DNA of 64,000 nt from Candidatus Omnitrophota bacterium (GCA_030650275.1 JAUSEK010000023.1:34189-98188), one strand, 5' to 3'. Shown: positions 12,071 through 31,289, counted from the first letter of the stretch. Translations and numbers: made by a program. Notes: generated from the sequence alone by a model not told the origin.

Positions 12071-12109
12071 ATTCCGTAGACTTGAATTCGGGTTACGGTG
12101 GGTGTCCCC
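12049..12109 (+). repeat. 19-bp-stem hairpin (one G:T) with 23-nt loop containing two GAATTC; spans folC stop, ends 10 nt before mnmE ATG
   Basis: GGGGACATCCACCGTAACC ... GGTTACGGTGGGTGTCCCC inverted repeat read directly; no U-tract. Confidence 0.5.
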
Positions 12110-12118
12110 GTAATTCAT

Positions 12119-13510
12119 ATGTATCAATACAAATCATTAGAAGACACGATCGTCGCCATCGCCACCCCGCCGGGCCAGGGGGGCATCGGCATTGTGCGTT
12201 TGAGCGGCACGCAGGCGCTGGCGGTTGCTGACCGTATTTTTCAGACAAAAAACGGCAGGAAGATCGCGCGCGCGTTGACGCACACGGTGCATTATGGCCG
12301 CATTGTCCATGGGGACAAGACCATCGACGAGGGATTGATCACCGTGATGCGCGCGCCTAAAAGTTACACGACCGAGGATGTGGCGGAGATCAATTGCCAC
12401 GGCGGTATGGCCGCGGTGCGCGCGGTCCTGGAAGCGGCGCTGGACGCCGGCGCGCGCCTGGCTGAACCCGGGGAATTCACCAAACGGGCGTTCATCCACG
12501 GCCGCATTGATCTGCCACAGGCCGAGGCCGTTCTGGATATTATCCAGGCAAAGACGCAGGCATTTTTGCGCGCCGGCCATGCGCATTTGCAGGGTGAATT
12601 GTCCGCCGCGCTGGGCGGGATCCGCGACGCGTTGATGGAAATTTATACGGTCATTGAGGCCCTCATCAATTTTCCCGAAGATGATATTGATGCTAAGGGC
12701 AGGAATGCTCTTGTCCAACAGATGCAGGCGCAGGAACAAGAAGTTGAACATTTGGTGAGGTCCGCGGACCAGGGGCGCCTTTTAAAAGAAGGCCTGCGCA
12801 TTGTCCTGTGCGGACGGCCCAACGTGGGCAAATCATCACTGCTGAACGTGCTTTTAAAACATGACCGCGCCATTGTCAGCCCCATGCCCGGGACCACCCG
12901 CGACCCGCTGGAAGAATACGCGCAAATTAAAGGTATTCCTTTTCAGATCATCGACACAGCCGGTATTTTGGAACCGCGCGATGTCGTGGAACAAGAGGCG
13001 GTCAAGCGCAGCCGGCGGCACATGGAGGACGCGGACATCGTTCTTTTGATCCTGGACGCCGGTGAGCCGCTTTCAAAAGAAGATACGCGTTTGGCCGGAC
13101 AGATCAAGGGCCGGAAGGTCATTGTTGTTTTAAATAAAAGCGATCTTCCCGCGCGGGTCACGGGTGAAGACATCAGGCGCTTGTTTCCCGACAGTCCCGC
13201 GGTGCGCGTCAGCGCGCTTAAAAAGACAGGCATTGAGGATCTTGGATCCGCTCTCATCACATGCGCGGGGCAGGCCAACCATTTTGACGGGCAGGGGATC
13301 CTGATCAGCAATATCCGCCACGTGCAGGCCCTTAAGTCCGCGCAAGAGCGCCTTGCCCACGCCGTCACCTTGACGGAACAGGGCACTTCCTGGGAATTCG
13401 TTTCCGAGGAGATCAAGGGCGCAATCAATCAGCTGGATGCCGTCACCGGCCGCAACATCGACGCCGATCTCCTGGACCGCATCTTTTCCTCATTCTGCAT
13501 CGGTAAATAG
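12119..13510 (+). CDS. mnmE: tRNA modification GTPase MnmE (TrmE)
   Basis: N-terminal IATPPGQGGIGIVRLSG, G-domain GRPNVGKSSLLN, C-terminal CIGK; ATG 12119 preferred over table GTG 12098, which lies inside the hairpin. Confidence 0.85.
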   Translation: MYQYKSLEDTIVAIATPPGQGGIGIVRLSGTQALAVADRIFQTKNGRKIARALTHTVHYGRIVHGDKTIDEGLITVMRAPKSYTTEDVAEINCHGGMAAVRAVLEAALDAGARLAEPGEFTKRAFIHGRIDLPQAEAVLDIIQAKTQAFLRAGHAHLQGELSAALGGIRDALMEIYTVIEALINFPEDDIDAKGRNALVQQMQAQEQEVEHLVRSADQGRLLKEGLRIVLCGRPNVGKSSLLNVLLKHDRAIVSPMPGTTRDPLEEYAQIKGIPFQIIDTAGILEPRDVVEQEAVKRSRRHMEDADIVLLILDAGEPLSKEDTRLAGQIKGRKVIVVLNKSDLPARVTGEDIRRLFPDSPAVRVSALKKTGIEDLGSALITCAGQANHFDGQGILISNIRHVQALKSAQERLAHAVTLTEQGTSWEFVSEEIKGAINQLDAVTGRNIDADLLDRIFSSFCIGK

Positions 13511-13534: not shown

Positions 13535-14173
13535 TTAATCTTTCTGCTGGATCTGGGTGTAGGCGGACAGGAGTTTCTGGATGAACTGCGGGTCCTGGGC
13601 GGATTCCATGACCTTGGGATTGGACATGAGCGTGACATAATCCCTTCTTTGAAGGGCCCTGACAACGCCCGGGTCCTTGAGCAAGGCCTGCATGCGTTCG
13701 TCCTCATGCAGGTCCTTGACGGCATCAGTATGTCCGGCCGGTTGGGCAGGAATAAAAGGCGTCAGAAGAGAGTAGGAAAAGGACCGGTGGATGTCCTTAC
13801 GCAGGGCTGTTATGGATGGATGGATCGGCGGCAAAAATGCCAGGACAAAGACAATCGGCAGCGCCAGGACAGCAACCCACAAAGCCGTGATCATAGCTCC
13901 GGCCAACCGTGAAAAGAAGCCCGACTGGACCCTGCCGGAGGCATTGATCGATCCCAGGATCATTTTAAGGATCAAACTCAAGGCAATGGGGCCCAACAGC
14001 CCGATGGCAAGGCTGACAGCGATATCTTTTGTCACCCTATAATAGAGAAAAGCAACACCTGTACCGATGATCAGAGCACAGGGGCCGATCACTGAACGGG
14101 CAAACCCGCAGCTGGCGCCGCGCAACAGCGCCAACGCTTCGATTAAAAGCAGGCAAATGTCGGTAACAGCCAT
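13535..14173 (-). CDS. cvpA: CvpA-family membrane protein
   Basis: Four TM helices followed by soluble C-terminal tail, typical of CvpA. Confidence 0.5.
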   Translation of the reverse strand: MAVTDICLLLIEALALLRGASCGFARSVIGPCALIIGTGVAFLYYRVTKDIAVSLAIGLLGPIALSLILKMILGSINASGRVQSGFFSRLAGAMITALWVAVLALPIVFVLAFLPPIHPSITALRKDIHRSFSYSLLTPFIPAQPAGHTDAVKDLHEDERMQALLKDPGVVRALQRRDYVTLMSNPKVMESAQDPQFIQKLLSAYTQIQQKD

Positions 14174-14375
14174 GATTTGATTATATCAGAGAAAAATTGT
14201 TTAAAAAATATTATTTTTTCATTCAAGGATTGTGGTAACCTCAATCAGGCCAACTATTTTGGAATAAATAAAAAGTTGCGATTTTATTTGCACTTTTGCC
14301 GGGATGTTTTACAATACCATTAGTAAGAAAGCGTTTTCGCCGTCATCATTTTTTCATACCTTTGTAGGTGGAAGT

Positions 14376-14708
14376 ATGGCAGACGTCAAAAATAAGCGCA
14401 GCGAAGACCGCCTGGACTGTTTTGTGCCGGTGGAAGGCAAAGCCGGGTCCGCATTTGACCAGACACAGACCGTGGACATCAGCCGCAACGGCATCGGTTT
14501 TGTTTCCTCCCACCCCCATCAAGTCAACGAAAAAGTCGCCATCGAGATCCAATTGAAGCCCAATGCCGAGCCGGTTTTGGTGCTGGGGGTCGTTAAATGG
14601 GTGAGTAAACTTTCGGATTCCAAGAATTACCGGATAGGGCTTAATTTTGCCGAAGTCCTTTCCGGTTCCCCAACCCGCCTGGACAGGTATTTTGACGAGG
14701 CGGGATAG
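14376..14708 (+). CDS. PilZ-domain protein (c-di-GMP receptor-like)
   Basis: RxxxR (KRSEDR) and DxSxxG (DISRNGIGF) PilZ motifs; ATG 14376 with SD-like GGTGGAAG. Confidence 0.65.
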   Translation: MADVKNKRSEDRLDCFVPVEGKAGSAFDQTQTVDISRNGIGFVSSHPHQVNEKVAIEIQLKPNAEPVLVLGVVKWVSKLSDSKNYRIGLNFAEVLSGSPTRLDRYFDEAG

Positions 14709-14728
14709 TTTCGCGAAGGATCTCTTTC

Positions 14729-15052
14729 ATGCCCGAACGCCGCCTTTTTGAACGTTTTTGGGCGCGTTATCCCGCCAAATTTAAGGATTCACGCAATGAA
14801 TACGGGACCGATGTTTTTCTAAGGGATGCCTCTGCCGAGGGCGTGCGCATCAACACCCGCGAGCGGATGTTTTTGGATGATCCCGTTACTTTGGAAGTTG
14901 AAGTTCCCGATGGCACCTCGCCGATGGTCCTCTCCGGCAGGGTGAGGTGGACCAGGGCGGCCGGTTCGTCGGCGTGGGATGTCGGCGTGCAATTTCCCCA
15001 GGTGGATTTTATGAAGATGAGCCGCCTTTTTCAACTGACCCTCCAGCCCTAA
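14729..15052 (+). CDS. PilZ-domain protein (second tandem copy)
   Basis: ERRLFER and DASAEGVRI PilZ motifs. Confidence 0.6.
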   Translation: MPERRLFERFWARYPAKFKDSRNEYGTDVFLRDASAEGVRINTRERMFLDDPVTLEVEVPDGTSPMVLSGRVRWTRAAGSSAWDVGVQFPQVDFMKMSRLFQLTLQP

Positions 15053-15060
15053 AACCAATC

Positions 15061-17790
15061 ATGGACGAAAAAGCACTTTATACCTACGGCCCCGACGGGA
15101 TCACGTTTGTTTCCGCGGCCGCGGGGGCGATCAAGACCATTTACGCCCCCCTATGCGGGGCGGACGCCTCCTCTTTGAAATCCGCGATCACGCCCTCTTT
15201 GAGCGGGGACATCAAATTGGATAAATTGCATTATGTCACCAAACCCGCGTCCCGTGAGGACCTGCGCCGGCCGTCGCGCGAATTTTTTGTTTCCGTCAAG
15301 GGCAAAGGGACCTGTTCGCTGGCCAAAGACAGCGCTCCGGATACGGCCACCGTCGCAATCGGACAATTGTGGCACCAGGTGACCCGCCGTCATCCGTCCT
15401 GCGGGCTTAGCCTTGAGGCCGTTCATTTCATTCCCGTCACCGATGAGACGGTTGAGCTCATGCGCGTGACGGTCAAAAACATTTCGCGCAGGAACATCAC
15501 CTTGACCCCCACCGCGGCCATTCCCATTTTCGGCCGTTCTCTGGCCAATAAACACGACCACGAACACGTCACCGCGCTTTTACACCGCATCCAACAGAAC
15601 AAGGACGGGGTGCTGGTCGAGCCCACCATGGTTTTTAATGAAGAAGGCCACGGGCAGGCGCAGTGCGTGTATTTTGTCTACGGCGCCGATGGCGCCGGCG
15701 CGCCCCCATCGGGAACTTTTCCGACGGTAGATACGTTTTTGGGGGATGCCGGCAACCTGGACGCCCCGCAGGCGGTCATGGAAGGCCATCGACCCGTTCA
15801 ATGTTCTGATGAGGCCTTGCAGGGCAAGGAAGCCGTTGGTGCTTTGCGTTTCAAAGAGATCACATTGAAACCCGGAGGGACTAAAGAATATTTCATTGTT
15901 GTGGGACTGGCGCCTGACGCTGCCGGGGCCCGCGCGTTCTTCAAACGTTTCGCCTCTCCCCAAGCGTTCAAAGAGGCCTGGGCGCTCAACAGGAAATTCT
16001 GGGAGGACAAGACCGGCACGATCCGTTTTAAGACCGGCGACGAGGGTTTTAATGCCTGGATGCGCTGGGTCACCCTGCAGCCGATCCTGCGGCGTATTTT
16101 CGGCTGTTCATTTTTGCCTGACCACGATTACGGCAAGGGAGGCAAGGGCTGGCGCGACATCTGGCAGGACCTTTTGTCGCTCATCCTCATCGAGCCCTCC
16201 GCCGTGCGCGGGGCTTTGCTCAACAATTGCGCGGGGATCCGCATTGACGGCAGCAATGCCACCATCATCGGCGCCAAACCCGGGGAATTCATCGCGGACC
16301 GCAATGCCATCACCCGCGTCTGGATGGACCACGGCTGCTGGCCGCTGGTGACCCTGCTTTTGTATATCAACCAAAGCGGCGATTTTGATGTTCTTCTGGA
16401 AAAGGTCCCGTATTTCCGCGACCCGCAAATGTTCAGGACCTTTGAGAAAGACTTAGGCTGGCTGGCGCGCTACGGCCATAAACTGGTGGACAAAAAAGGC
16501 CATACGTACGAAGGCACCGTCCTCGAGCACATTTTGGTGCAGAACCTGACCCAGTTCTTTAACGTCGGGGAACACAATTGCATCCGCCTGGAAAGCGCGG
16601 ACTGGAATGACGGGCTGGACATGGCTTTCGCGCGCGGGGAAAGCGCGGCGTTCACGGCCTTTTACGGCGGCAACCTTTTGAAGATCGCCGACATCATCGA
16701 GGGCCTGGCCGGACATAAAGGCATTGCGGCCGTTGAAGTGGCCAAAGAAATCTTGCTTTTATTGGACACCCTTAGCGGCGATCCCATAAATTACGACCAT
16801 CCCAGGGACAAACATCAGCTGTTGTTCGACCGTTATTTCAGGGCCGTCCAGCCGGCATTGAGCGGGGAAAAAGTGTCCGTCAGCGTCCAGGGCCTTGTCA
16901 AAGACCTGCGCCACAAAGGCCGCTGGCTTTTTTCCCATTTGCGCCATCAGGAGAAAATTACTGTCGAGGATAAGGGCAAGAACTACACCTGGTTCAATGG
17001 GTATTATGACAATCAGGCCCAACGGGTGGAAGGTAAAAAAGACGGCACGGTGCGCATGACTTTGACGGCCCAGGTTTTCGCCATCATGAGCGGCATGGCC
17101 GAGACCAGGGAGATCGAGGACATTATGACAAGTGTTGATCGATTTCTGCGGGATAAGAATTTGGGCGGATACCGTTTGAATACCGATTTCGGCATCCGTC
17201 ATTATCCGGATCTGGGGCGGGCGTTCGCTTTTGCCTACGGCACCAAGGAGAACGGTGCCTTCTTCAGCCACATGACGGTGATGTACGCGTACGCGCTGTA
17301 TGAACGCGGCTTTGCCCGTCAGGGGCACGAAGTGCTGCGTTCGATCACCCGCATGGCCGTCGATGGCAGGCGCAGTAAGATCTATCCGGGCATCCCGGAA
17401 TATTTTGATCCCGAAGGCCGGGGGATGTACCATTATTTGACCGGGTCTGCCAGCTGGTTTGTCCTGACCCAATTGACGCAGGCATTCGGCGTGCGCGGTC
17501 TTCGCGGTGACCTGGCCCTATCTCCGCAATTAGTCAGGGAAGAATTTGACGCGAAGGGCAACGCGTCCGTGACCTGTCCTTTTGCCGGGCACACGATCAC
17601 GGTGCAATACCGTAATCCAAAGAAGCTGGATGCCGGGTCCTATACTATTAAAGAGATCAGCTTTCAGGGAAAGCCCTTAGGCCTTGAACGTTCCCCCCGG
17701 GGGGAGACGCTCATCAGGCGTTCCCGCCTGCGCGCCGACCTTGCATCGGCTAAGCCGCTTGTCCTGGATGTGATGTTGGGAACACGATAA
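15061..17790 (+). CDS. GH94-like (cellobiose/chitobiose phosphorylase-type) glycoside phosphorylase/hydrolase, (alpha/alpha)6 barrel
   Basis: About 909 aa; motif ESADWNDGLD and overall GT36/GH94-like architecture; ATG 15061 (table start 14947 overlaps the PilZ gene). Confidence 0.5.
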   Translation: MDEKALYTYGPDGITFVSAAAGAIKTIYAPLCGADASSLKSAITPSLSGDIKLDKLHYVTKPASREDLRRPSREFFVSVKGKGTCSLAKDSAPDTATVAIGQLWHQVTRRHPSCGLSLEAVHFIPVTDETVELMRVTVKNISRRNITLTPTAAIPIFGRSLANKHDHEHVTALLHRIQQNKDGVLVEPTMVFNEEGHGQAQCVYFVYGADGAGAPPSGTFPTVDTFLGDAGNLDAPQAVMEGHRPVQCSDEALQGKEAVGALRFKEITLKPGGTKEYFIVVGLAPDAAGARAFFKRFASPQAFKEAWALNRKFWEDKTGTIRFKTGDEGFNAWMRWVTLQPILRRIFGCSFLPDHDYGKGGKGWRDIWQDLLSLILIEPSAVRGALLNNCAGIRIDGSNATIIGAKPGEFIADRNAITRVWMDHGCWPLVTLLLYINQSGDFDVLLEKVPYFRDPQMFRTFEKDLGWLARYGHKLVDKKGHTYEGTVLEHILVQNLTQFFNVGEHNCIRLESADWNDGLDMAFARGESAAFTAFYGGNLLKIADIIEGLAGHKGIAAVEVAKEILLLLDTLSGDPINYDHPRDKHQLLFDRYFRAVQPALSGEKVSVSVQGLVKDLRHKGRWLFSHLRHQEKITVEDKGKNYTWFNGYYDNQAQRVEGKKDGTVRMTLTAQVFAIMSGMAETREIEDIMTSVDRFLRDKNLGGYRLNTDFGIRHYPDLGRAFAFAYGTKENGAFFSHMTVMYAYALYERGFARQGHEVLRSITRMAVDGRRSKIYPGIPEYFDPEGRGMYHYLTGSASWFVLTQLTQAFGVRGLRGDLALSPQLVREEFDAKGNASVTCPFAGHTITVQYRNPKKLDAGSYTIKEISFQGKPLGLERSPRGETLIRRSRLRADLASAKPLVLDVMLGTR

Positions 17791-17884
17791 GTATTAATTG
17801 CGTGATGCGCGTTTATTTGTTAAAATCCGTTTTCTTATTTTTAAACAGGCGTTGATCTCTCCATAAGCAGGATGAAGGAGTTTT

Positions 17885-19312
17885 ATGGGAAAAGTCCCGG
17901 CGCATTCTCACCACGTCACCGCCCCTGAAGACCGCATTCCATTTTTTCAACAAGCCGCGTACAGCATAGGAGCACTTGTCAACCAGATGCAGGCGGCGGC
18001 TTTGACCGCCATGGTCCTGGTCCTCAATCTTGGTTTGGGGATGGATCCCGCCAAGGTGGGGATCATCGGGACGGTCCCGCGCCTGATCGACGCCTTCACC
18101 GACCCCTTGATCGGTTACACGTCGGACAATACCCGCACGCGGTATGGACGCCGCCGGCCCTTCATGTTATTCGGGGCCGTGATCTCAGGCCTTTTATTCA
18201 TCCTGATGTTCCAGCTGCATAAAGAAAGCCCGGAAAGTTACAGTTTTTGGTATTTTCTGATCATCCAGTGCTTGTATGTGGTCGCCTTCGCCTTCTTCGC
18301 CATTCCCTTTATTGCCTTAGGGTTTGAAATGACCCCTGATTATCACGAACGCACGCGTCTGCAGGGGGCCTGCAACACCATCGGCCAGATCGCCTGGGTC
18401 ATTTCTCCCTGGCTGTTCGCATTCATGTATAGCAGCAAGGACCTCGTGCATGGCGTACGGGTGCTAGCGGTTATTTTTGGCGTCTTCATCATCGCCGGCG
18501 GGCTTTTCCCGGTATTTGTCAACAAAGAGCGTTCTACCCATCTGCCCAGTGTCAAGAAACGCAAGGCGATGGAGGTGATGAAGGATTTCTTCTCCGGCTG
18601 CAAGATCGCCTTCAAGAACCGGCCCTTCGTTCAGCTGTGCACCATTACGTTCCTGGTCTTCAACGGGTTCATGCTGGCTTCCTCGTTCACGGCCTATGTC
18701 ATTTTCTTTTACGTGTTCGGCGGCGATTACGGCAAGGGGGGGCAACTGCTTGGGTGGAACGGGACGGTGGCGGCGGTCGCGAGCTTCTTTGTCATCTTCC
18801 CTTTGATCACGTGGATCGCGACCAGGCTCGGCAAGCGCAACACCCTGCTCATTACTATTCCCTTGTCCATGGTCGGGTACGCCATGAAATGGTGGGGTTA
18901 TAACCCGCAGCATCCCTACCTGCTCTTGGTGGCGGCGCCATTGATCGCCTTCAGTTTGGGGTCGATCTTCACTGTTGTCACCTCCATGCTGGCCGATGTC
19001 TGCGATTTTGACGAACTTGAGAACGGTTCCCGCCGGGAGGGTATTTTCGGCGCCATTTATTGGTGGATGATCAAGCTCGGACAGGCGGCCGCCTCGTTGA
19101 TGTCCGGTTTTCTGCTCAACTGGACGGGCTTCAAGGAATCCTTGCACGGCGCCCAGACCGCGCATACCTTGTTATGGCTGCGGCTTTTTGATATCGGCAT
19201 CCCCATCGCGGCCTCATTGATCGCGATCTATTTTATCGCGACCTTCGAGATCTCCGAGGACAGGGCTTACGATATTCGCAAGCAGCTGGAACAAAGACGG
19301 GGGAAAACGTAG
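17885..19312 (+). CDS. glycoside-pentoside-hexuronide (GPH) family cation symporter (MFS)
   Basis: 12 TM; GPH signature region DPLIGYTSDNTRTRYGRRRPF. Confidence 0.75.
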   Translation: MGKVPAHSHHVTAPEDRIPFFQQAAYSIGALVNQMQAAALTAMVLVLNLGLGMDPAKVGIIGTVPRLIDAFTDPLIGYTSDNTRTRYGRRRPFMLFGAVISGLLFILMFQLHKESPESYSFWYFLIIQCLYVVAFAFFAIPFIALGFEMTPDYHERTRLQGACNTIGQIAWVISPWLFAFMYSSKDLVHGVRVLAVIFGVFIIAGGLFPVFVNKERSTHLPSVKKRKAMEVMKDFFSGCKIAFKNRPFVQLCTITFLVFNGFMLASSFTAYVIFFYVFGGDYGKGGQLLGWNGTVAAVASFFVIFPLITWIATRLGKRNTLLITIPLSMVGYAMKWWGYNPQHPYLLLVAAPLIAFSLGSIFTVVTSMLADVCDFDELENGSRREGIFGAIYWWMIKLGQAAASLMSGFLLNWTGFKESLHGAQTAHTLLWLRLFDIGIPIAASLIAIYFIATFEISEDRAYDIRKQLEQRRGKT

Positions 19313-19313
19313 T

Positions 19314-20606
19314 ATGCCAAGAGGCGCGCCGCTTGCCCTTTGTTGCGCGTGGATATTGATGGCCCTGACCGGGTGCTCCCCGTCCCCCTCTAAAAGCAAT
19401 ACCATCCTCCTGTGGCACTGGATGACGGACCGTCACGACACCCTCGAGCAGTTAGCGGAAAAATACAAACAAGAGACAGGCATCGAAGTCACGGTCCAGT
19501 TGTTCGCCCCTTCCGAAGCGTATTCGCAGAAAGTGATCGCCGCGGCGCAGGGCAATGTCCTGCCGGACATTTACGGCGTTCTGGACAAGAAATCCATCGT
19601 GGCTGATTTCATCCAGGCGGGACTTATCGCCGATCTGACGAACGCAATGGAAGCGGACGGGGGGAGGTGGAAGAACAGCCTGTTTGACAAGGCCCTGGCC
19701 GACAGGCGCTTTGACGCCGGCAACATCTATGGGGTAAAGCCCGGGATCTACGGGGTCCCCATCGACGTGACCAGTCAGCAGATGCTCTACAACAGGAAAC
19801 TCCTAGCCAAGGCGGGCATCACGGCGCCGCCTAAGACCTGGGACGAATGGATCAGGGACTGCCAGGCGCTGCGGCGTGTGGGGATCACACCGTTCGTGTC
19901 CGGCTGGGGCGAGCTCTGGTTGCTGGATTGTTTCGCCTCCAATTATGCGTTCAATATCATGGGGGAAGCGAAGGTTTTCGCCACCTACCGGGGAGAAGTC
20001 AAGTACACTGACCCTGACTGGATCAGGGTCTTGGGGCTCTTCGAAGAATTACGCGGCAAGAATGCCCTCATGGAAGGCATCGTGACCAAGGGCAATAAAT
20101 ACGCCGAGCAGGATTTCGCCCTGGAGCGCGCCGCTTTCACCTTCAACGGGTCCTGGTGCGTCAATGTTTATAAGGACATGAATCCGAAACTGGACTACGG
20201 GGTCATGCTCCCGCCGCCATTGGACACGGCGTTCCCGCTTAAGATCTGGGGAGGGGCCGGCTCCTCTTTTGTGGTCAATAGCACCTCTCCTCATAAGGAC
20301 AAGGCCACGGCGTTCTTGAAGTGGTTGACCGCCAAGGAACAGCAAGCGGTGCTGTCCAAGAATACCAACAATTTGCCCGCAAACCGCGAGGCCATGGCGT
20401 TGATCCCACCCATCCTCGAGGAGTTTGCCAAGGGCATGGAAAATTCAACGCACCCGAACACCTGGCCGGTCCATGAAGATCCGCTGGTTGCGGAAACTCT
20501 TGACAAGGGCATCCAGAACATCATCATCGGCGAGAAAACCCCTGGGCAGGTGGCCGCTGATGTGCAACGGGTCAAGGACCGTCAAATGTCCAAAGGGAGC
20601 CGTTAG
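19314..20606 (+). CDS. ABC sugar transporter substrate-binding lipoprotein
   Basis: Lipobox LTGCSP; family-1 solute-binding protein features. Confidence 0.75.
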   Translation: MPRGAPLALCCAWILMALTGCSPSPSKSNTILLWHWMTDRHDTLEQLAEKYKQETGIEVTVQLFAPSEAYSQKVIAAAQGNVLPDIYGVLDKKSIVADFIQAGLIADLTNAMEADGGRWKNSLFDKALADRRFDAGNIYGVKPGIYGVPIDVTSQQMLYNRKLLAKAGITAPPKTWDEWIRDCQALRRVGITPFVSGWGELWLLDCFASNYAFNIMGEAKVFATYRGEVKYTDPDWIRVLGLFEELRGKNALMEGIVTKGNKYAEQDFALERAAFTFNGSWCVNVYKDMNPKLDYGVMLPPPLDTAFPLKIWGGAGSSFVVNSTSPHKDKATAFLKWLTAKEQQAVLSKNTNNLPANREAMALIPPILEEFAKGMENSTHPNTWPVHEDPLVAETLDKGIQNIIIGEKTPGQVAADVQRVKDRQMSKGSR

Positions 20607-20607
20607 C

Positions 20608-21522
20608 ATGGACCGGAAGTTCAGGAATGCCGCCGTTGCCAGGGACCATTTGGAGAATTTCCTGTTCGTTGTTCCCGCCGTCGCTATTTTCTGCATTTTT
20701 TACATTTACCCGTTTTACAAGATGATCAACCTTTCCTTGTTCGAATGGAAAGGGATCGGCCCCATGCATTTCGTGGGATTGGCCAATTACAAAGAGCTGA
20801 TGGGAGACCATCTCTGGTGGGATTCCATCGGCCACGCCGGATACATCACCCTCATCGCCTTGATCTTCCAGAATCTCCTGGCGTTCGCGCTGGCCTTGGC
20901 CTGCGACCGGGAGATCCGCTTGAAGGGCTTCTACCGCGCGGTCTTCTTCATCCCGCCGGTGCTTTCGGAAGTCGTTGTCGGTCTCATCTGGAACTGGATC
21001 CTCAACCCTCAAATGCAGAACAACCAGCCCGTGGGACTGCTGAATCATTTCCTGTATGCCACGGGTTTCCCCCAGTTGGTGCATAACTGGTTGGGGGACC
21101 CCAAGACGGCCCTGACCACCATCGCCGTCGTCAATGCCTGGAAAGGGTTTGGCTGGGGCTTCATCATGTTCCTGGCCGGCCTGCAGACCATCGACAAACA
21201 GCTCTATGAAGCGGCCAGGGTCGACGGGGCAGGGGCATGGAAAACCTTCACCAACGTGACCGTCCCCATGATGCTGCCGGTGATCCTGGTGGTCGTCATC
21301 CTGACGGTGTTGGGGTGCATGCAGGTCTTTGTCCTTATCCTGGCCTTGGTCAGCGAGGGGCTGGTCAATCACACGGACGTGCCCGTGACGCGCATTTTCT
21401 CGGCGATGCAAAGCACCAACCGCTTTGGCTATGCCTGTGCCGAGGCGGTCATTTTCGGGGCCACCCTCATCTGCATCTCTTTCATCCTGAAAAAACTGGC
21501 GGACAGGACGAGGCAATTGTAG
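20608..21522 (+). CDS. ABC sugar transporter permease (MalF/UgpA-like)
   Basis: ATG 20608 right after SBP stop; EAA-loop region EAARVDGAGAWKTFTNVTVP. Confidence 0.75.
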   Translation: MDRKFRNAAVARDHLENFLFVVPAVAIFCIFYIYPFYKMINLSLFEWKGIGPMHFVGLANYKELMGDHLWWDSIGHAGYITLIALIFQNLLAFALALACDREIRLKGFYRAVFFIPPVLSEVVVGLIWNWILNPQMQNNQPVGLLNHFLYATGFPQLVHNWLGDPKTALTTIAVVNAWKGFGWGFIMFLAGLQTIDKQLYEAARVDGAGAWKTFTNVTVPMMLPVILVVVILTVLGCMQVFVLILALVSEGLVNHTDVPVTRIFSAMQSTNRFGYACAEAVIFGATLICISFILKKLADRTRQL

Positions 21523-21524
21523 AT

Positions 21525-22370
21525 ATGCGCGTGAACAGATACATCCTCTGGAGAATGACCAAATCGACGTTCATCCACCTTTTCCTGGGCACAGTGACGC
21601 TGGTGTGCCTGTTCCCCCTCTTTTGGATGATACGCTGCTCGCTGATGAGCAATGAGACCATCTTCGTTGACACGGGGCTGCTGCCGCATCACATCAACTT
21701 CGGTAATTTCGCCATCGCGTGGACCAAGGGCCATCTGGCCGGGTTTTTCTTCAACAGCGTCATTTATACGGCCTGCGTCGTCAGTGGCATCGTGCTCATT
21801 TCTTCGCTCGCGGCTTTTGCCTTTTCGCGGCTGGAATTCCCGGGCAAGAACGTCCTGTTCTACCTGTTCGTTGCGGCCATGATGATCCCTTTGCCGGGAA
21901 GCTTCGTGGCGTTGTTCGTGCTGATGGCCAAACTGCACCTGGTCAATACCCGTATCGGCTATATCCTGTGCATGATCAACGTCGGGCTGTCCATGAGCAT
22001 TCTTTTATTGAAAACATTTTTTGACAAGATGCCCCGTGACCTGGAAGACGCAGCCCGCATCGACGGCTGCTCCAAACTGGGGATCTGGTGGAACGTGGCC
22101 CTGCCCCTGGCCCGGCCGGCCATTGCGGTCATTGTGATCTTCAATTCACTGACCGTCTGGAATGAATATATCCTGGCAACCCTGCTGTTGGGGGACACCA
22201 GCCTCATGCCCTTGCAACGGGGGCTGATGGTTTTTCAGGGAGCCAACAGCGTTGATTACCCGGTCTTGATGGCCGGCCTCACCATGGCGGCAGTGCCTAT
22301 TGTTATGGTATACTTGGCCATGCAGAAACATATTATCAAAGGCCTGTCTTCGGGAGCTGTGGTCGGTTAG
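21525..22370 (+). CDS. ABC sugar transporter permease (MalG/UgpE-like)
   Basis: ATG 21525; EAA motif EDAARIDGCSKLGIWWNVALP. Confidence 0.75.
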   Translation: MRVNRYILWRMTKSTFIHLFLGTVTLVCLFPLFWMIRCSLMSNETIFVDTGLLPHHINFGNFAIAWTKGHLAGFFFNSVIYTACVVSGIVLISSLAAFAFSRLEFPGKNVLFYLFVAAMMIPLPGSFVALFVLMAKLHLVNTRIGYILCMINVGLSMSILLLKTFFDKMPRDLEDAARIDGCSKLGIWWNVALPLARPAIAVIVIFNSLTVWNEYILATLLLGDTSLMPLQRGLMVFQGANSVDYPVLMAGLTMAAVPIVMVYLAMQKHIIKGLSSGAVVG

Positions 22371-22374
22371 AATT

Positions 22375-24705
22375 ATGGGGACACAATACTTAATTCAACA
22401 CAACACTTCATCAGGAATTAAGCATTATGTCCCCATAATTTTGCTGTCTGTTTTTCTTGCATCATGGGGTTTTTGTGCCTTTGCCGAGGACGTTCCTGCC
22501 GCCACATCCTCTGAAGAGCTCGTCCGCCTGTCCTGGAAGGCCTCCAACGAGGGGAATATCGACGCCCTCAACAAACTTTACGACGTAATGATCGCCGCCT
22601 ACGATGCCGAGGCCCGCCTGCAGGCGGGCCGTTTGACCGGTTTCCCCCCACGGGACCAGGCTGAAAGTTATCGCATCATGGACGATGTGGCCACCGTCAT
22701 GTTCATCAAGGCCGAGACCTTGATGCACCAAGGCAAGAATGACGAGGCCAAGGTCCTCTTTGAGCAGGTCAGCGCGCAATACCCGTGGGCCCAGAGTTGG
22801 GACCCCAGCCGCGGTTCATTCTGGTCGGTCAAAGAAAAAGCCCAGGCGAGCATCAAGACCATGTCCGGCCAGGCCCCGGACCAGGAAGCGGCTGTTGAGC
22901 GCAAAGTCCCGCGCACGGTCCCTCATCTTGCTTTCCCGGGCAAACGGGTCGTGGATTATCTGAAGTACGGCCGTTTCCTTAATGCCGGCACAAAAGGTTA
23001 TCATTATCAGGTCACGGACCCAAAAGGGCTTAAGGCCGCCGCCGGAGAAGCTATTTATCCCAACCTCACGGACATGTATCGGGACCCCGCGTACAAAAAG
23101 GCCTTGCAGGAAGGCCGGCTGGAGGGCAGCCACTGGGATTTCGTCAATACCGATGACATGCAAGCCGCTATTTTCAAATGGGCCACGGCCCCGGAACCCT
23201 GGGGCACGCGGCTTTTTTATATGGGCGTCATTTTTGAAAAGGCCAAAATGTATCATGAGGCCATCAAGGCCTACCACGCCGTTGTCGTGTTCTTTCCAGA
23301 GACGGTTGCATGGACATATTGGCAAACTCCCTGGTATCCGGGCCAGGCCGCCGTCGCCAAGATCCAGTATATTATCCGCACGCATCCGGAATTAAAACTG
23401 GAATTCAAGGGGGCGAAAATTCAGATCCTGAATTCTTTTGACAATGACCCGAAAAACGACGTGACCATGACCAGTCCCGGGACCGTCACCAGGGCCAGCA
23501 CGAAATTACGCGTGGAACAGATGCAAGTCCCGTTGGGCGAACCGGTCAAGACCGTTGGCACAGGCCTGGTGCAGCTGGTCAAATATTCAAGCGGTCCCTG
23601 GCAGATGACCGTTGACGGCAAGCCGTTCTTGATCAAAGGCATGAGCTATATGCCCAACAAGGTCGGCCAGAGCCCGGACAAGGGCACCCTGACCAATTGG
23701 ATGGAACAGGACGAGAATGCCAACGGGCTCATCGACGCCCCTGATGAGGCGTGGGTGGACAAGAACCACAACGATCAGCAGGACCCTGATGAGCCGTCCG
23801 TCGGTGATTTTGCTTTGATGAAAGACGTGGGCGTCAATACCATCCGCTTGTACCATCACCCCATGAAACCCAACAAAGCGCTCCTGGAAAAAATGTTCAA
23901 GGACCACGGGTTGATGGTCGTCCTGGGGGATTTCATCGGCAAATACGCCATCGGGTCCGGAGCATCCTGGTCGGAGGGGACCGATTATGAAAATCCAGAG
24001 CATCTCAAGGCCATGATGGACAGCGTCCGGCAGATGGTCATGGAATACAAGGACGAGCCGTACATTTTGATGTGGATCTTAGGCAATGAGAACAATTACG
24101 GGGTCGCGTCCAATGCCGACAAAAAACCGGACGCGTATTACAAATTCGTCAATGAACTCGCGCTTATGATCAAGTCCATGGACCCCGATCATCCGGTTGC
24201 CCTGTGCAACGGGGACACTCTGTATCTGGATAAGTTCGCCCAATTCGCGCCGGACGTGGACATTTATGCCGGCAACGTGTATCGGGGCGATTACGGGTTT
24301 GGGTCATTCTGGCAGCAGGTGGCCGAGGTCGCGGACAAGCCGGCGTTCATTTCCGAATACGGTGCCCCGGCCTTTGCTCCGCCCATGTCTTATGAAGAGG
24401 CCCAGCAGGCCCAGGCCGATTATCACCGCGGCAACTGGTTAGACATCCAATACAACAGCGCCGGTTACGGGGACGGAGCAGGTAATGCCATCGGCGGCAT
24501 TGCCTTTGAGTGGCTGGATGAATGGTGGAAGAATTATGAACCATCCATCCACGACACCAAGGCCGATGTGGTGGGGCCTTTCGCGGGCGGGTATTATTAT
24601 GAGGAATGGTTCGGTATTTTCGGCCAGGGGGACGGCAAAAGCAGCCCTTTTCTGCGCGAACCCAGAAAGGTTCACAATACTTATAAGGAACTTTGGAAAA
24701 ACTGA
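22375..24705 (+). CDS. secreted clan GH-A TIM-barrel glycoside hydrolase (GH2/GH5-like) with N-terminal WDPxGxFW helical domain
   Basis: Signal peptide IILLSVFLASWGFCAFA; catalytic-looking ILGNENNY (acid/base) and ISEYGAP (nucleophile) motifs; N-terminal domain homologous to repeats of 28447..29310. Confidence 0.6.
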   Translation: MGTQYLIQHNTSSGIKHYVPIILLSVFLASWGFCAFAEDVPAATSSEELVRLSWKASNEGNIDALNKLYDVMIAAYDAEARLQAGRLTGFPPRDQAESYRIMDDVATVMFIKAETLMHQGKNDEAKVLFEQVSAQYPWAQSWDPSRGSFWSVKEKAQASIKTMSGQAPDQEAAVERKVPRTVPHLAFPGKRVVDYLKYGRFLNAGTKGYHYQVTDPKGLKAAAGEAIYPNLTDMYRDPAYKKALQEGRLEGSHWDFVNTDDMQAAIFKWATAPEPWGTRLFYMGVIFEKAKMYHEAIKAYHAVVVFFPETVAWTYWQTPWYPGQAAVAKIQYIIRTHPELKLEFKGAKIQILNSFDNDPKNDVTMTSPGTVTRASTKLRVEQMQVPLGEPVKTVGTGLVQLVKYSSGPWQMTVDGKPFLIKGMSYMPNKVGQSPDKGTLTNWMEQDENANGLIDAPDEAWVDKNHNDQQDPDEPSVGDFALMKDVGVNTIRLYHHPMKPNKALLEKMFKDHGLMVVLGDFIGKYAIGSGASWSEGTDYENPEHLKAMMDSVRQMVMEYKDEPYILMWILGNENNYGVASNADKKPDAYYKFVNELALMIKSMDPDHPVALCNGDTLYLDKFAQFAPDVDIYAGNVYRGDYGFGSFWQQVAEVADKPAFISEYGAPAFAPPMSYEEAQQAQADYHRGNWLDIQYNSAGYGDGAGNAIGGIAFEWLDEWWKNYEPSIHDTKADVVGPFAGGYYYEEWFGIFGQGDGKSSPFLREPRKVHNTYKELWKN

Positions 24706-24845
24706 ATACCCCGCATTTTTGACCTTCCATAGGAATAATTTCAGAAATATTTTTTAATTTAGTCGTAACTAATTGATATTAATATTGTTACGTCATTTCC
24801 TTTTATTTGCACATTCCCCAAAAGCATGTTATCTTTGAACGTTAT

Positions 24846-24863
24846 CCGGGAAACGTTTCCCGG
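24846..24863 (+). promoter_or_regulatory. perfect 18-bp palindrome CCGGGAAACGTTTCCCGG (LacI/PurR-type operator-like, central AAACGTTT)
   Basis: Read directly; lies between AT-rich promoter region and ATG 24919. Confidence 0.45.
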
Positions 24864-24870
24864 CCCAAAG

Positions 24871-24900
24871 GATGTCATTCCCGCGTAGGCGGGAATCCAG
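24871..24900 (+). repeat. hairpin repeat family copy 1 (GATGTCATTCCCGC-GTAG-GCGGGAATCCAG)
   Basis: 8-bp stem ATTCCCGC/GCGGGAAT with conserved flanks; recurs at 25884 and 52266. Confidence 0.7.
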
Positions 24901-28359: not shown

Positions 28360-28446
28360 CGCGTCGGGCTTGCCGAATCCGGAAAGATGTATTATACTTC
28401 TAGGGTGTAAGTTCAGTTTGAATAACAATCAAGATGGAGGTTGGAT

Positions 28447-31284: not shown

Positions 31285-31289
31285 AATTG

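Follow-up and report, generated by a model that had tools for sequence, protein, structure and literature searches.

A conserved pair of stand-alone PilZ proteins at the head of a candidate beta-1,3-glucan utilisation locus in Omnitrophota

As a second messenger, c-di-GMP is known chiefly for the control of motility, adhesion and polysaccharide synthesis, and the presence of two PilZ genes at the head of a sugar catabolic gene cluster raises the question of what such a pair of predicted c-di-GMP receptors could be doing there. The cluster lies in a 64,000-nucleotide stretch (the window, analysed in full) of a MAG from Candidatus Omnitrophota, an abundant, ultra-small and uncultured phylum whose members are thought to be host-dependent or predatory. 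Flanked by mnmE and mnmG, its genes are closely spaced and all on the same strand, running from PilZ1 and PilZ2 through a laminaribiose-phosphorylase homologue (LBP), a GPH symporter, a binding protein, two permeases and a GH158-like gene to a LacI-family gene in last position. Genes and lengths match an independent public gene call, with the exception of the binding protein (415 residues there, 430 here). As a tentative proposal, in which our confidence falls a little short of even, we read the region as a LacI-controlled beta-1,3-glucan (laminari-oligosaccharide) utilisation locus in which the PilZ pair would serve as c-di-GMP sensors that tune the operon machinery. Its structural genes and their left-hand neighbour are the following.

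13535-14173, minus strand: CvpA-like membrane protein, divergent; conserved left-hand neighbour of the operon
14376-14708, plus strand: PilZ1, stand-alone PilZ-domain protein, 110 residues (Pfam PF07238, 47.7 bits, 2e-12)
14729-15052, plus strand: PilZ2, stand-alone PilZ-domain protein, 107 residues (Pfam PF07238, 50.8 bits, 2e-13)
15061-17790, plus strand: LBP, GH94 laminaribiose-phosphorylase homologue, 909 residues (Pfam GH94 catalytic and supersandwich domains)
17885-19312, plus strand: GPH-family (MFS_2) cation symporter (Pfam MFS_2, 238 bits)
19314-20606, plus strand: CUT1-type sugar ABC solute-binding lipoprotein (Pfam SBP_bac_1, SBP_bac_8)
20608-21522, plus strand: ABC permease 1 (Pfam BPD_transp_1; NCBIfam UgpA/GlcT-like)
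21525-22370, plus strand: ABC permease 2 (Pfam BPD_transp_1; NCBIfam UgpE/MalG-like)
22375-24705, plus strand: exported TPR and clan GH-A TIM-barrel protein, GH158-like (Pfam Glyco_hydro_2_C plus TPR)
24919-28359, plus strand: 1146-residue protein of a very large Omnitrophota family (no Pfam or NCBIfam match)
28441-29310, plus strand: exported TPR protein (Pfam TPR; synteny)
29291-29905, plus strand: exported 204-residue protein, conserved locus member (synteny)
29991-31238, plus strand: membrane-anchored coiled-coil protein, conserved locus member

Both small open reading frames exceed the PF07238 gathering cut-off of 22.5 bits, as expected from the preliminary description of two stand-alone PilZ genes, and the start codon of PilZ1 is backed by orthologue alignment as well as by the public gene call. 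That description had also placed RxxxR and DxSxxG motifs in both proteins, and alignment as a check for motif degeneracy finds RxxxR and [D/N]xSxxG invariant or nearly so in about 30 orthologues of each protein, at identities down to about 40%. In PilZ1 the motifs read R8-SED-R12 and D34-IS-RN-G39, with R8, R12, D34, S36 and G39 invariant in 22 orthologues. In PilZ2 they read R5-LFE-R9 and D33-AS-AE-G38: neither of the two orthologue sets (22 and 51) shows any variation at R5, R9 or G38, S35 is unchanged throughout the 22 and at least 90% conserved in the 51, and D33 does not vary among the 51 closer homologues and is replaced by N in part of the wider set. Profile-profile comparison of the two proteins with hhalign (97.6% probability, 19% identity) indicates that PilZ2 is a distant paralogue of PilZ1. 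The AlphaFold2 model of PilZ2 (pLDDT 83) has six strands and a helix at residues 94-104, the predicted six-stranded beta-barrel with C-terminal helix; PilZ1 is linked to this fold by the hhalign comparison with PilZ2. All top Foldseek matches of this model are PilZ domains, the best being the c-di-GMP-binding ones of BcsA, VCA0042, PA4608, Alg44, MotI and YcgR. On sequence grounds, PilZ1 and PilZ2 are genuine PilZ domains with intact predicted c-di-GMP-binding motifs.

In size and architecture the two proteins resemble known stand-alone PilZ adaptors (MapZ/PA4608-CheR1, DgrA/MotI, Xanthomonas PilZ-FimX-PilB), which share a length of about 100-120 residues, a single PilZ barrel with a C-terminal helix and canonical RxxxR and [D/N]xSxxG motifs. 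Like them, PilZ1 and PilZ2 are single-domain proteins without an output domain, so that action by protein-protein contact would be expected; neither PilZ-PilZ nor PilZ-enzyme fusions occur among the 120 best PilZ2 matches or the 120 best LBP matches. They differ from these adaptors in forming an ordered pair of distant paralogues that always occur together, and in being embedded in a repressor-controlled catabolic sugar operon. No GGDEF, EAL or HD-GYP gene lies within the 64-kb window, and that this genome makes c-di-GMP is an assumption drawn from published work on the phylum.

The gene downstream of the pair starts 8 nt after the PilZ2 stop codon by recount, not the 9 nt given previously, and its product, described there as GH94-like, belongs to GH94 both by Pfam (PF17167, 88 bits, (alpha/alpha)6 catalytic domain; PF06165, 39 bits, N-terminal supersandwich domain; both above their cut-offs) and by its match to the laminaribiose phosphorylase of Paenibacillus sp. 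YM-1 (PDB 6GGY), which spans residues 27-892 at 917 bits (E 1e-274). Cellobiose and chitobiose phosphorylases reach 43-73 bits (E 1e-19 to 1e-13) and cellodextrin phosphorylases 13-14 bits. Of the two kinds of substrate suggested earlier, the beta-glucan, in laminaribiose form, is the one favoured over the chito-oligosaccharide; a cellobiose or chitobiose phosphorylase identity is all but excluded by matches so much weaker than that to 6GGY. The active-site motifs GWRDIWQD, ADWNDGLD and KENGAFFSHMT align with the same motifs of the Paenibacillus enzyme (PsLBP, PDB 6GGY/6GH2; GH94, EC 2.4.1.31), a close homologue in which the WND catalytic aspartate, the RD sugar-phosphate motif and the phosphate-site histidine have been defined (PMC6771811) and are conserved here. 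Judged from these alignments, the substrate is almost certainly laminaribiose or a beta-1,3-gluco-oligosaccharide. Paenibacillus LBP loci likewise contain a binding protein, two permeases and a LacI-family regulator. They differ in that the transporter precedes the phosphorylase and that GH158-like, TPR and 204-residue exported proteins are missing, and none of the Firmicutes LBP loci examined has PilZ genes.

A symporter and a complete ABC importer had been described downstream, of which the symporter, binding protein and two permeases hold up; completeness does not, as no MalK-type ABC ATPase gene is present in the cluster or elsewhere in the 64-kb window. A MacB/FtsX-type permease gene (55537-56655) immediately precedes the window's sole Walker A site (about 56780), and an ABC ATPase is absent from related loci too. 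Sugar ABC importers without an ATPase of their own are usually explained by a shared ATPase encoded elsewhere. The solute-binding protein has a lipobox (LTGC) near its N-terminus, and its nearest PDB relatives, at E-values of only 1e-24 to 1e-19, bind maltose or chitin oligosaccharides. The GPH symporter (TIGR00792, 187 bits, below cut-off) is an accessory gene found in only some orthologous loci.

The TIM-barrel protein that follows finds its best PDB matches in GH158 (9oro, 1.4e-13; 6pal, 3e-8), and a profile of its orthologues does so as well (1.6e-15 and 2.4e-13, with GH2 TIM barrels next at 5e-10), although no more than about 135 of the 776 residues, those surrounding the catalytic strands, are covered by the match. 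Its GNE and SEYG motif regions align with 9oro and the clan GH-A catalytic pair is present, N571-E572 and E661 being invariant in 21 orthologues; by this alignment it is a putative endo-beta-1,3-glucanase. Both of its candidate catalytic glutamates are invariant; compared with the GH158 enzyme of the Bacteroides beta(1,3)-glucan loci (BuGH158, PDB 6PAL), one of the GH158 structures matched, it is set apart by the short extent of the similarity and by a long TPR-containing N-terminal part. The Omnitrophota locus, by gene content, combines ABC import with phosphorolytic breakdown. Bacteroides beta-glucan loci, in contrast, rely on SusC/D import and hydrolysis. Further downstream, the exported TPR gene is found directly 3' of the GH158-like gene in most orthologous loci, and the exported 204-residue protein has no match in Pfam or the PDB. 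The 1146-residue gene lies inside the operon in this genome; members of its family share N- and C-terminal domains around variable middle segments separated by D-x-A-M motifs, and have in common the N-terminal third alone across more than 4370 homologue clusters.

Two stretches of the window carry the cis-elements through which the locus is probably transcribed, and the candidate regulator is encoded at its end:

14282-14293, plus strand: 12-mer TTTTATTTGCAC, AT-rich UP-like stretch and -35 hexamer of the operon promoter (exact match)
14287-14315, plus strand: predicted sigma-70-like promoter TTTGCA, 17 nt, TACAAT (consensus scan)
14327-14338, unstranded: predicted LacI-type palindromic operator GAAAGCGTTTTC, 12 nt after the -10 hexamer
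24801-24812, plus strand: second copy of the 12-mer TTTTATTTGCAC, upstream of the 1146-residue gene (sequence match)
24846-24863, unstranded: second predicted LacI-type operator, an 18-bp perfect palindrome CCGGGAAACGTTTCCCGG with core GGAAACGTTTCC at 24849-24860
31287-32300, plus strand: LacI-family transcription regulator (Pfam LacI HTH PF00356 and Peripla_BP_3 PF13377)

The recurrence of the 12-mer upstream of PilZ1 and of the 1146-residue gene had been noticed in the preliminary description and is real, at positions 1-3 nt from those given there. Taken alone it is weak evidence, since 8 of 100 shuffles gave at least two matches at no more than one mismatch; the pair is nevertheless credible because both copies precede a LacI-type palindrome that is conserved across related loci, at much the same offset from the 12-mer in both cases (45 nt for the first copy, 48 nt for the second). 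The 12-mer overlaps the -35-like TTTGCA of the operon promoter, and when 92 orthologous upstream regions are aligned, its position shows the consensus atttT.a.TTGctttT, with a -35 TTGC and a -10 TA.AcT conserved across orthologous loci. A reading of the 12-mer as a c-di-GMP-related site was rejected: two sigma-70-type promoters resemble each other here, and the 12-mer supplies the AT-rich/-35 part of each. The palindrome, with family consensus GRAARCGYTTYC and dyad symmetry about a central CG (AANCGNTT core), is placed at the promoter and occurs in 49 of the 92 distinct PilZ1-upstream regions (about 0.01 expected per region, an approximately 50-fold enrichment), and only 4 of those occurrences fall outside the interval 41-67 nt ahead of the ATG. 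Across 1.84 Mb of related loci, 62 of 67 occurrences lie upstream of PilZ1, and the same GAAAGCGTTTTC palindrome stands upstream of the binding-protein gene in a Paenibacillus LBP locus (L066), which has a LacI gene as well. The LacI-family protein has LacI-family regulators and CcpA as nearest PDB relatives (1e-43 to 1e-39), and in related genomes its orthologues form the last gene of the locus, with mnmG next. With these cis-elements established, we infer that the protein binds them and is, on sequence and position, the probable repressor acting at both palindromes. Two promoters, each with a LacI-type operator, and a LacI gene in the same locus mean that ordinary repressor control can account for transcription.

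How tightly the PilZ pair is bound to this pathway can be read from its neighbourhood in other genomes. Of 80 species-level LBP loci, 30 have the pair directly upstream, and these 30 belong to a single LBP clade; both genes are present in 29, and the remaining locus (L006), ended by a contig edge, has PilZ2 only. In metagenome loci anchored on PilZ1, PilZ2 comes next in 71 of 73 cases and 47 of 55 have a GH94 gene, so that the linkage is reciprocal and extends over more than 100 distinct loci, with a median intergenic gap of about 28 nt. Conservation reaches through the whole locus to LacI, and the order PilZ1-PilZ2-phosphorylase-transporter is strongly conserved in one ultra-small Omnitrophota clade. 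On the other side of the promoter, a CvpA orthologue (whose Pfam Colicin_V match here is weak and below cut-off) is divergently placed upstream of PilZ1 in most related loci and, among metagenome loci, in 41 of the 49 that could be assessed. The pair is absent from about ten LBP loci within the same LBP clade, and these appear rearranged, with a transposase remnant in one and unrelated neighbours in the others. In L157 the same operon, again headed by the pair, has a GH94 phosphorylase of the cellobiose/chitobiose type; with the enzyme type swapped there, it is the pathway, not one particular enzyme, to which the pair appears tied. It is also kept in loci without transporter genes (L102, L136) or without LBP (L154, L160), which indicates that no single operon-encoded protein is its obligatory partner. 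The PilZ2-LBP residual distance correlation (0.51) is the highest of any pair in the operon and a weak co-evolution signal; with mnmE distance as sole control, CvpA-LBP (0.545) is as strong as the PilZ proteins (0.47-0.56).

We envisage that the exported GH158-like enzyme would cut beta-1,3-glucan, that the fragments would be imported by the binding-protein-dependent ABC system with an ATPase from elsewhere in the genome, the GPH symporter acting as an accessory importer, and that cytoplasmic LBP would convert laminaribiose and phosphate to glucose and glucose-1-phosphate. Transcription would start from the sigma-70-type promoter upstream of PilZ1 and would most likely be repressed by the LacI-family protein bound at the GRAARCGYTTYC palindrome just past the -10 element, the 1146-residue gene being driven by the second promoter and operator copy. 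PilZ1 and PilZ2 would thus be made only on induction of the operon. From the established gene identities, motif conservation and synteny we infer c-di-GMP binding by the pair and the nature of its target: acting jointly as sensors, the two proteins may tune the phosphorylase or the importer, possibly including the separately encoded ATPase, by protein-protein contact, such that glucan uptake and phosphorolysis would track the cell's c-di-GMP (attached versus free) state.

A sharper version of this model, in which PilZ1 and PilZ2 form a c-di-GMP-sensing heterodimer that directly switches the GH94 disaccharide phosphorylase or the importer on and off, we rate as rather unlikely. Bacterial cellulose synthase, BcsA, is the known case of c-di-GMP gating an enzyme that acts on beta-glucan, and the PilZ2 model finds its best structural match in the PilZ domain of this enzyme (5ej1, 4hg6, 4p00); that domain differs in being fused to a polymer-making membrane glycosyltransferase, whereas here separate PilZ proteins adjoin a soluble catabolic phosphorylase. 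Information could also flow the other way, from food to behaviour, with the pair made when beta-glucan is sensed and acting as a c-di-GMP effector for pilus-dependent attachment, motility or a Che-like pathway, a possibility that we take seriously while placing it on the unlikely side. Among solved structures, sequence comparison relates PilZ2 only to the type IV pilus PilZ proteins of Xanthomonas, and paralogous PilZ1-PilZ2 pairs adjoin response-regulator and CheB/CheR genes (L095, L120), which fits a more general signalling role. The retention of the pair where LBP or transporter genes are missing also speaks for an effector of behaviour. Such a role is harder to square with the promoter-proximal position of the pair, close to the phosphorylase in nearly all loci, with its persistence beside a transporter and a GH94 phosphorylase even where the latter has been exchanged for another type, and with the absence of any pilus or motility gene conserved at the locus. 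The behavioural account also draws on a subclade in which the locus lies downstream of giant genes: seven related loci have an upstream ORF of more than 2200 residues (cut by the flank limit). Giant genes of Omnitrophota adjoined by pilZ and carbohydrate-transport genes have been described in a 2023 preprint (West-Roberts et al., bioRxiv 10.1101/2023.11.21.568195), and the arrangement given there, with small pilZ genes ahead of solute-binding proteins, permeases and glycoside hydrolases in the same phylum, resembles ours. The preprint proposes the giant proteins' GGDEF domains as interaction partners of the PilZ proteins; its text makes no mention of a phosphorylase, and the sections consulted do not name a LacI regulator, an operator or a fixed PilZ1-PilZ2 pairing. 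The giant gene itself sets that locus apart, there being none in our 64-kb window and mnmE lying upstream in most related loci, and the proposed interaction cannot be the general rule.

Two barrels encoded at the head of an operon that they might control also recall MrkH, which consists of two PilZ-type barrels and is among the Foldseek matches of PilZ2 (E about 1e-2). That PilZ1 and PilZ2 are an MrkH-like c-di-GMP-dependent transcription factor activating or autoregulating the operon nevertheless seems improbable: the LacI-family regulator and its strongly conserved operator already explain transcriptional control, the PilZ1-upstream regions hold no second conserved motif besides promoter elements, orthologue pI values lie between 5.2 and 10.3 and a basic character is not conserved, and the 120 best PilZ2 matches include no fused two-domain form. 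We are equally sceptical that the linkage has no functional meaning or that c-di-GMP binding has been lost, the proteins being small passengers or nucleotide-independent adaptors like Xanthomonas PilZ. To our knowledge, that non-binding Xanthomonas type lacks the N-terminal RxxxR, whereas both motifs persist here in distant orthologues; the reciprocal linkage and the rearranged appearance of the PilZ-less loci likewise speak against it. In favour of such a reading are the same-clade loci without the pair and the existence of PilZ-fold proteins that do not bind c-di-GMP (PDB 3dsg title).

Correcting the public label "cellobiose phosphorylase" to laminaribiose-phosphorylase homologues suggests beta-1,3-glucan as a carbon source of this clade. 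We know of no genetic system for Omnitrophota, and the locus offers a compact module for recombinant work, with two proteins of about 110 residues, a phosphorylase with a solved homologue and a LacI repressor with a defined operator. A c-di-GMP-receptor pair in a clade-wide catabolic beta-glucan operon suggests an output of the dinucleotide other than its familiar ones, be it the control of diet or a report of feeding to behaviour, and points to a possible coupling of sugar feeding to a second messenger of lifestyle. Should the heterodimer switch prove true, we know of no earlier example in which catabolic glycan phosphorolysis or uptake is controlled by a nucleotide second messenger by way of free-standing PilZ adaptors, and feeding on beta-1,3-glucan, be its source algae, fungi or prey, would be tied to the state, attached or predatory, of these ultra-small Omnitrophota.

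Two stand-alone PilZ-domain genes, PilZ1 and PilZ2, head an operon whose third gene encodes a 909-aa homologue of the GH94 laminaribiose phosphorylases (LBP).

12098-13510: mnmE, just upstream of the locus
14376-14708, + strand: PilZ1, 110 aa; Pfam PilZ 47.7 bits against a cut-off of 22.5
14729-15052, + strand: PilZ2, 107 aa; Pfam PilZ 50.8 bits against a cut-off of 22.5
15061-17790, + strand: LBP homologue, 909 aa
22375-24705, + strand: GH158-like protein, 776 aa; signal sequence, TPR repeats and a clan GH-A TIM barrel
31287-32300: LacI-family regulator, closing the locus
32349-34184: mnmG, just downstream of the locus

Both PilZ proteins, which the preliminary description had credited with RxxxR and DxSxxG motifs, score above the family cut-off and carry these motifs intact, as R8-SED-R12 and D34-IS-RN-G39 in PilZ1 and as R5-LFE-R9 and D33-AS-AE-G38 in PilZ2. 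PilZ1 residues R8, R12, D34, S36 and G39 are invariant among 22 orthologues with identities down to ~37%. In PilZ2, R5, R9 and G38 do not vary in either orthologue set (22 and 51 sequences), S35 is invariant in the former and at least 90% conserved in the latter, and position 33 is an aspartate in the 51 closer homologues and an aspartate or asparagine in the wider set. The AlphaFold2 model of PilZ2 (pLDDT 83) features a six-stranded barrel followed by a C-terminal helix, and Foldseek ranks c-di-GMP-binding PilZ domains, those of BcsA, VCA0042, PA4608/MapZ, Alg44, MotI, YcgR and MrkH, as its top matches. By sequence comparison the two proteins are distant paralogues (hhalign probability 97.6%, 19% identity), and no fusion was found among the 120 best PilZ2 matches, all of 101-132 aa. 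We consider it likely that PilZ1 and PilZ2 are true c-di-GMP receptors.

The phosphorylase gene directly follows PilZ2, as previously noted, with a gap of 8 nt from the PilZ2 stop codon rather than 9. Its product had been called GH94-like, an assignment secured by the Pfam GH94 catalytic and supersandwich domains and by a search against all PDB sequences, where the match to 6GGY, the laminaribiose phosphorylase of Paenibacillus sp. YM-1 (PsLBP), reaches 917 bits (E 1e-274, residues 27-892), with 43-82 bits to cellobiose and chitobiose phosphorylases and a cyclic beta-1,2-glucan synthase domain, and 13-14 bits to cellodextrin phosphorylases. The GH94/GH-Q active site is defined by a WND catalytic loop, an RD sugar-phosphate motif and a phosphate-site histidine (PMC6771811), and the segments ADWNDGLD, GWRDIWQD and KENGAFFSHMT of the 909-aa enzyme line up with the corresponding PsLBP motifs. 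Only two LBPs have been characterised so far (PMC8140972), and the ~50% identity points to LBP activity in the present enzyme. Public records of these proteins read 'cellobiose phosphorylase', a label that is probably wrong. As for the substrate, proposed earlier to be a beta-glucan or a chito-oligosaccharide, the former part stands, in that a beta-1,3-glucan-derived sugar is indicated, and the latter loses ground, as chitobiose phosphorylases match far lower than 6GGY. The enzyme is 100% identical to a Candidatus Omnitrophota MAG protein encoded on a 325-kb contig, and no fusion was found among the 120 best LBP matches (731-924 aa). In one relative's locus, L016, a single 1642-aa ORF (3205-8130) spans both an LBP homologue and a complete Tex-like protein (Tex_N, YqgF, HHH and S1 domains); loss of a stop codon or misassembly is a more probable cause than a genuine fusion, and the ORF was set aside as fusion evidence.

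Between 14376 and 22370, seven + strand ORFs follow one another with gaps of 1 to 94 nt, and an eighth, the GH158-like gene, lies 4 nt beyond. LBP is followed by the anticipated GPH symporter (GPH/MFS_2), a lipoprotein-type solute-binding protein and two ABC permeases, and an independent public gene call on an identical contig agrees in genes and lengths, except for a binding protein of 415 aa there against 430 aa here. The importer had been described as complete, which is incorrect because the cluster has no ABC ATPase gene; the window contains a single Walker A site, at ~56780, just downstream of a MacB/FtsX-type permease gene. The best solved relatives of the 776-aa protein are the GH158 structures 9oro (1.4e-13) and BuGH158 (6pal; 3e-8), and a profile of 21 orthologues places GH158 (1.6e-15 and 2.4e-13) ahead of GH2 barrels, with an alignment to GH158 that spans only ~135 residues. 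An N-E acid/base pair and a nucleophile glutamate are invariant, and we regard the protein as a putative GH158-like endo-beta-1,3-glucanase, with the GH158-like domain at residues ~400-776. Further downstream lie genes for a 1146-aa protein, two exported proteins (one with TPR repeats, the other of 204 aa) and a membrane-anchored coiled-coil protein, followed by the LacI-family gene, whose product has LacI-family regulators and CcpA as its nearest solved relatives. Taken alone, the operon's identity is in our judgement highly probable.

mnmE and mnmG are often neighbours. Here they flank the ~19-kb glucan-utilisation locus, as they do in many related Omnitrophota loci, and the locus thus behaves like a conserved insert between two tRNA-modification genes. 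Elsewhere in the window, 47651-49900 encodes a GAF domain fused with a PtsP/EI-Ntr-type PEP-utilising enzyme, sugar uptake being otherwise of the ABC and GPH types; no other PTS components were seen among the scanned window ORFs of at least 250 aa. An AbiEi/AbiEii toxin-antitoxin pair occupies a low-GC stretch at 36667-38329 (GC 0.45 versus ~0.56 around it), which suggests a small horizontally acquired island.

To place the arrangement in a broader context, six-frame ORFs of 80 species-level genome loci anchored on LBP were searched with the window proteins. PilZ1 and PilZ2 lie directly upstream of the phosphorylase gene in 29 of the 80, and a 30th locus, cut at a contig end, retains PilZ2. 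All 30 belong to Omnitrophota-type MAGs, some mislabelled as Planctomycetales or Elusimicrobia, and fall into one clade of a neighbour-joining phosphorylase tree; PilZ genes are absent from the other Omnitrophota clades and from all Firmicutes LBP loci (Paenibacillus, Clostridium, Caloramator). About ten loci within the PilZ clade are without PilZ genes. These have unrelated neighbours, among them a transposase remnant, a sodium-solute symporter and a HAD hydrolase, and look like relocations of the enzyme gene. The recurrent order, supported by matches at orthologue-level E-values, is a CvpA-like gene on the opposite strand, PilZ1, PilZ2, LBP, in some cases GPH, the binding protein, the two permeases, the GH158-like, TPR, 204-aa and coiled-coil genes, LacI and mnmG. 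In a reciprocal set of metagenome contigs anchored on a PilZ1 alignment, PilZ2 is the next gene in 71 of 73 assessable loci, a GH94 gene lies within 1.2 kb downstream in 47 of 55, and a divergent CvpA-like gene lies upstream in 41 of 49, with median gaps of ~28 nt at the PilZ1/PilZ2 and PilZ2/GH94 junctions. Groundwater and peat are among the sample types that yielded such contigs. The linkage between the PilZ pair and the phosphorylase is real and far beyond chance.

Several loci depart from this order. In L157, the pair heads the same transporter and GH158-like operon with an 807-aa cellobiose/chitobiose-type GH94 enzyme (469 bits to 8ho7 versus 136 bits to 6GGY); in L154, the enzyme is replaced by a 717-aa protein that matches CBM_4_9 only weakly and below threshold; in L160, no gene separates the pair from that for the binding protein; and L102 and L136 are without transporter genes, keeping the pair, LBP and the GH158-like gene. 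Furthermore, L095 (2544-3218 and 6563-7080), L120 (5319-6005) and L125 contain paralogous PilZ1-PilZ2 pairs outside sugar operons and without a phosphorylase; those of L095 and L120 adjoin response-regulator genes, and in L120 a CheB/CheR fusion-type gene is a further neighbour. These exceptions suggest that the pair is a signalling module of two genes that can be reused, linked to the pathway as a whole rather than to one invariant partner gene.

The preliminary description had also pointed to a 12-mer, TTTTATTTGCAC, shared by the regions upstream of PilZ1 and of the 1146-aa gene; it occurs exactly twice in the window, at 14282-14293 and 24801-24812, which upholds the sharing and shifts the positions by 1-3 nt. 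The first copy overlaps a sigma-70-like promoter whose hexamers, TTTGCA and TACAAT, are 17 nt apart and whose last base is 14315. An alignment of 92 distinct PilZ1-upstream regions reveals a conserved AT-rich stretch, a -35 TTGC, a -10 TA.ACT and, downstream of the latter, a palindrome whose commonest form is GAAAGCGCTTTC. The degenerate pattern GRAARCGYTTYC is present in 49 of the 92, located 41-67 nt before the PilZ1 ATG in all but 4 occurrences, against an expectation of ~0.01 per region from its frequency in 1.84 Mb of related loci, where 62 of 67 occurrences lie at the PilZ1-upstream position. The window holds exactly two such sites, at 14327-14338 and at 24849-24860, the latter within an 18-bp perfect palindrome, and both lie 45-48 nt after a 12-mer copy. 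LacI-family operators are characterised by a dyad with a central CG and an AANCGNTT core, the CcpA cre site being an example, and the Paenibacillus solani LBP operon, which also contains a LacI gene, carries the same palindrome upstream of its binding-protein gene. From these sequence features we conclude that the 12-mer is part of two similar promoters, most likely under one LacI-type repressor, with the PilZ genes in that regulon. A c-di-GMP riboswitch upstream of PilZ1 was rejected: Rfam at gathering thresholds returned only two tRNAs in the whole window, and a permissive scan of 14100-14450 for known RNA elements gave chance-level matches only.

The 1146-aa protein (24919-28359) belongs to a very large Omnitrophota family of more than 4370 clusters (90% identity, E <= 1e-5), a second member of which, P0321 (1039 aa), is encoded on the same 325-kb contig. 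Members have a common signal-peptide-bearing N-terminal domain of ~375 aa, and six compared in full also have a common C-terminal domain of ~70 aa; of the 120 best matches, 116 carry the GGIDL motif of this domain. The middle segments differ wholly from member to member and are often whole housekeeping enzymes (adenylate kinase, enolase, malate synthase with isocitrate lyase, phosphoglycerate kinase, hexokinase, glutamate dehydrogenase, transaldolase, ACP and REC domains). Between segments lies a short D-x-A-M motif, averaging 3.8 per protein across the family versus 0.14 in shuffled sequences; the 1146-aa protein has five PDRAM/PDQAM copies and one DVAM. This looks like a carrier-plus-cargo or polyprotein architecture, and the family may merit a separate study. 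A REP-like palindrome, ATTCCCGC-N4-GCGGGAAT, occurs in the gene's 5' untranslated region (24877-24896) and in its coding sequence (25891-25910), where it encodes VIPAKAGIQ, a peptide also found in the homologue P0242; no window shuffle yielded two matches.

Alongside the gene identities, conserved order, intact motifs and cis-elements documented here, family knowledge suggests a route in which the exported GH158-like enzyme would release laminari-oligosaccharides, an ABC system with an ATPase encoded elsewhere and an accessory GPH symporter would import them, and LBP would yield glucose and glucose-1-phosphate, the operon being repressed by LacI until an inducer appears. The PilZ pair, with binding motifs and no output domain, would be made only when the operon is on, and in our preferred reading PilZ1 and PilZ2 would jointly sense c-di-GMP and, through direct contact with the phosphorylase or the importer, modulate its activity. 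We put forward the complete model, a glucan operon with a c-di-GMP-sensing PilZ pair tuning phosphorylase or importer, only tentatively. Neither a Pfam scan of 30 window ORFs (at least 250 aa, not part of the core operon) nor a GG[DE]EF/EAL regular-expression search of the window and 160 loci revealed c-di-GMP turnover genes linked to the operon. In a distance-matrix co-evolution analysis, all locus proteins correlate after control for mnmE, and PilZ2-LBP is highest (0.51) when the other operon proteins serve as background. We count this test as weak because, under the mnmE-only control, the divergent neighbour CvpA correlates with LBP (0.545) as strongly as the PilZ proteins do, and it was set aside as too weak to decide.

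In the main rival reading, the pair would signal 'feeding' to the cell's behaviour, for example through pili or a Che-like pathway. This reading draws on the paralogous pairs beside response-regulator and Che genes and on the loci that keep the pair while lacking LBP or the transporter; we hold it to be rather unlikely. A transcriptional role akin to that of MrkH is less likely: transcription is already accounted for by LacI and its operator, and conserved basic charge, sought as a sign of DNA binding, is absent from the pair.

A preprint by West-Roberts et al. described pilZ and carbohydrate-transport genes beside Omnitrophota giant genes and suggested that PilZ proteins could interact with GGDEF domains of the giant proteins during predation (10.1101/2023.11.21.568195). 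In seven of our loci (L017, L020, L021, L024, L028, L045 and L135), a + strand ORF stops immediately ahead of the CvpA-like gene; its length, more than 2200-2660 aa, is a lower bound because the fetched flank cuts off the 5' part. These giant ORFs are probably the giant genes of West-Roberts et al., and the preprint's PilZ-carbohydrate module is the same module as in these seven loci; no GG[DE]EF motif is found in the fetched C-terminal parts. Whereas the preprint's loci have a giant gene upstream, a feature restricted to a subclade, the window and most related loci have mnmE there and no giant gene. The window locus also has a phosphorylase, which goes unmentioned in the preprint text (10.1101/2023.11.21.568195). 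Within the literature collection searched, no paper tied PilZ proteins either to glycoside phosphorylases or to sugar importers. The components are ordinary members of their families; a fixed PilZ pair heading a catabolic phosphorylase operon, already glimpsed in the preprint, represents a way of wiring c-di-GMP effectors that is an uncharacterised variant.
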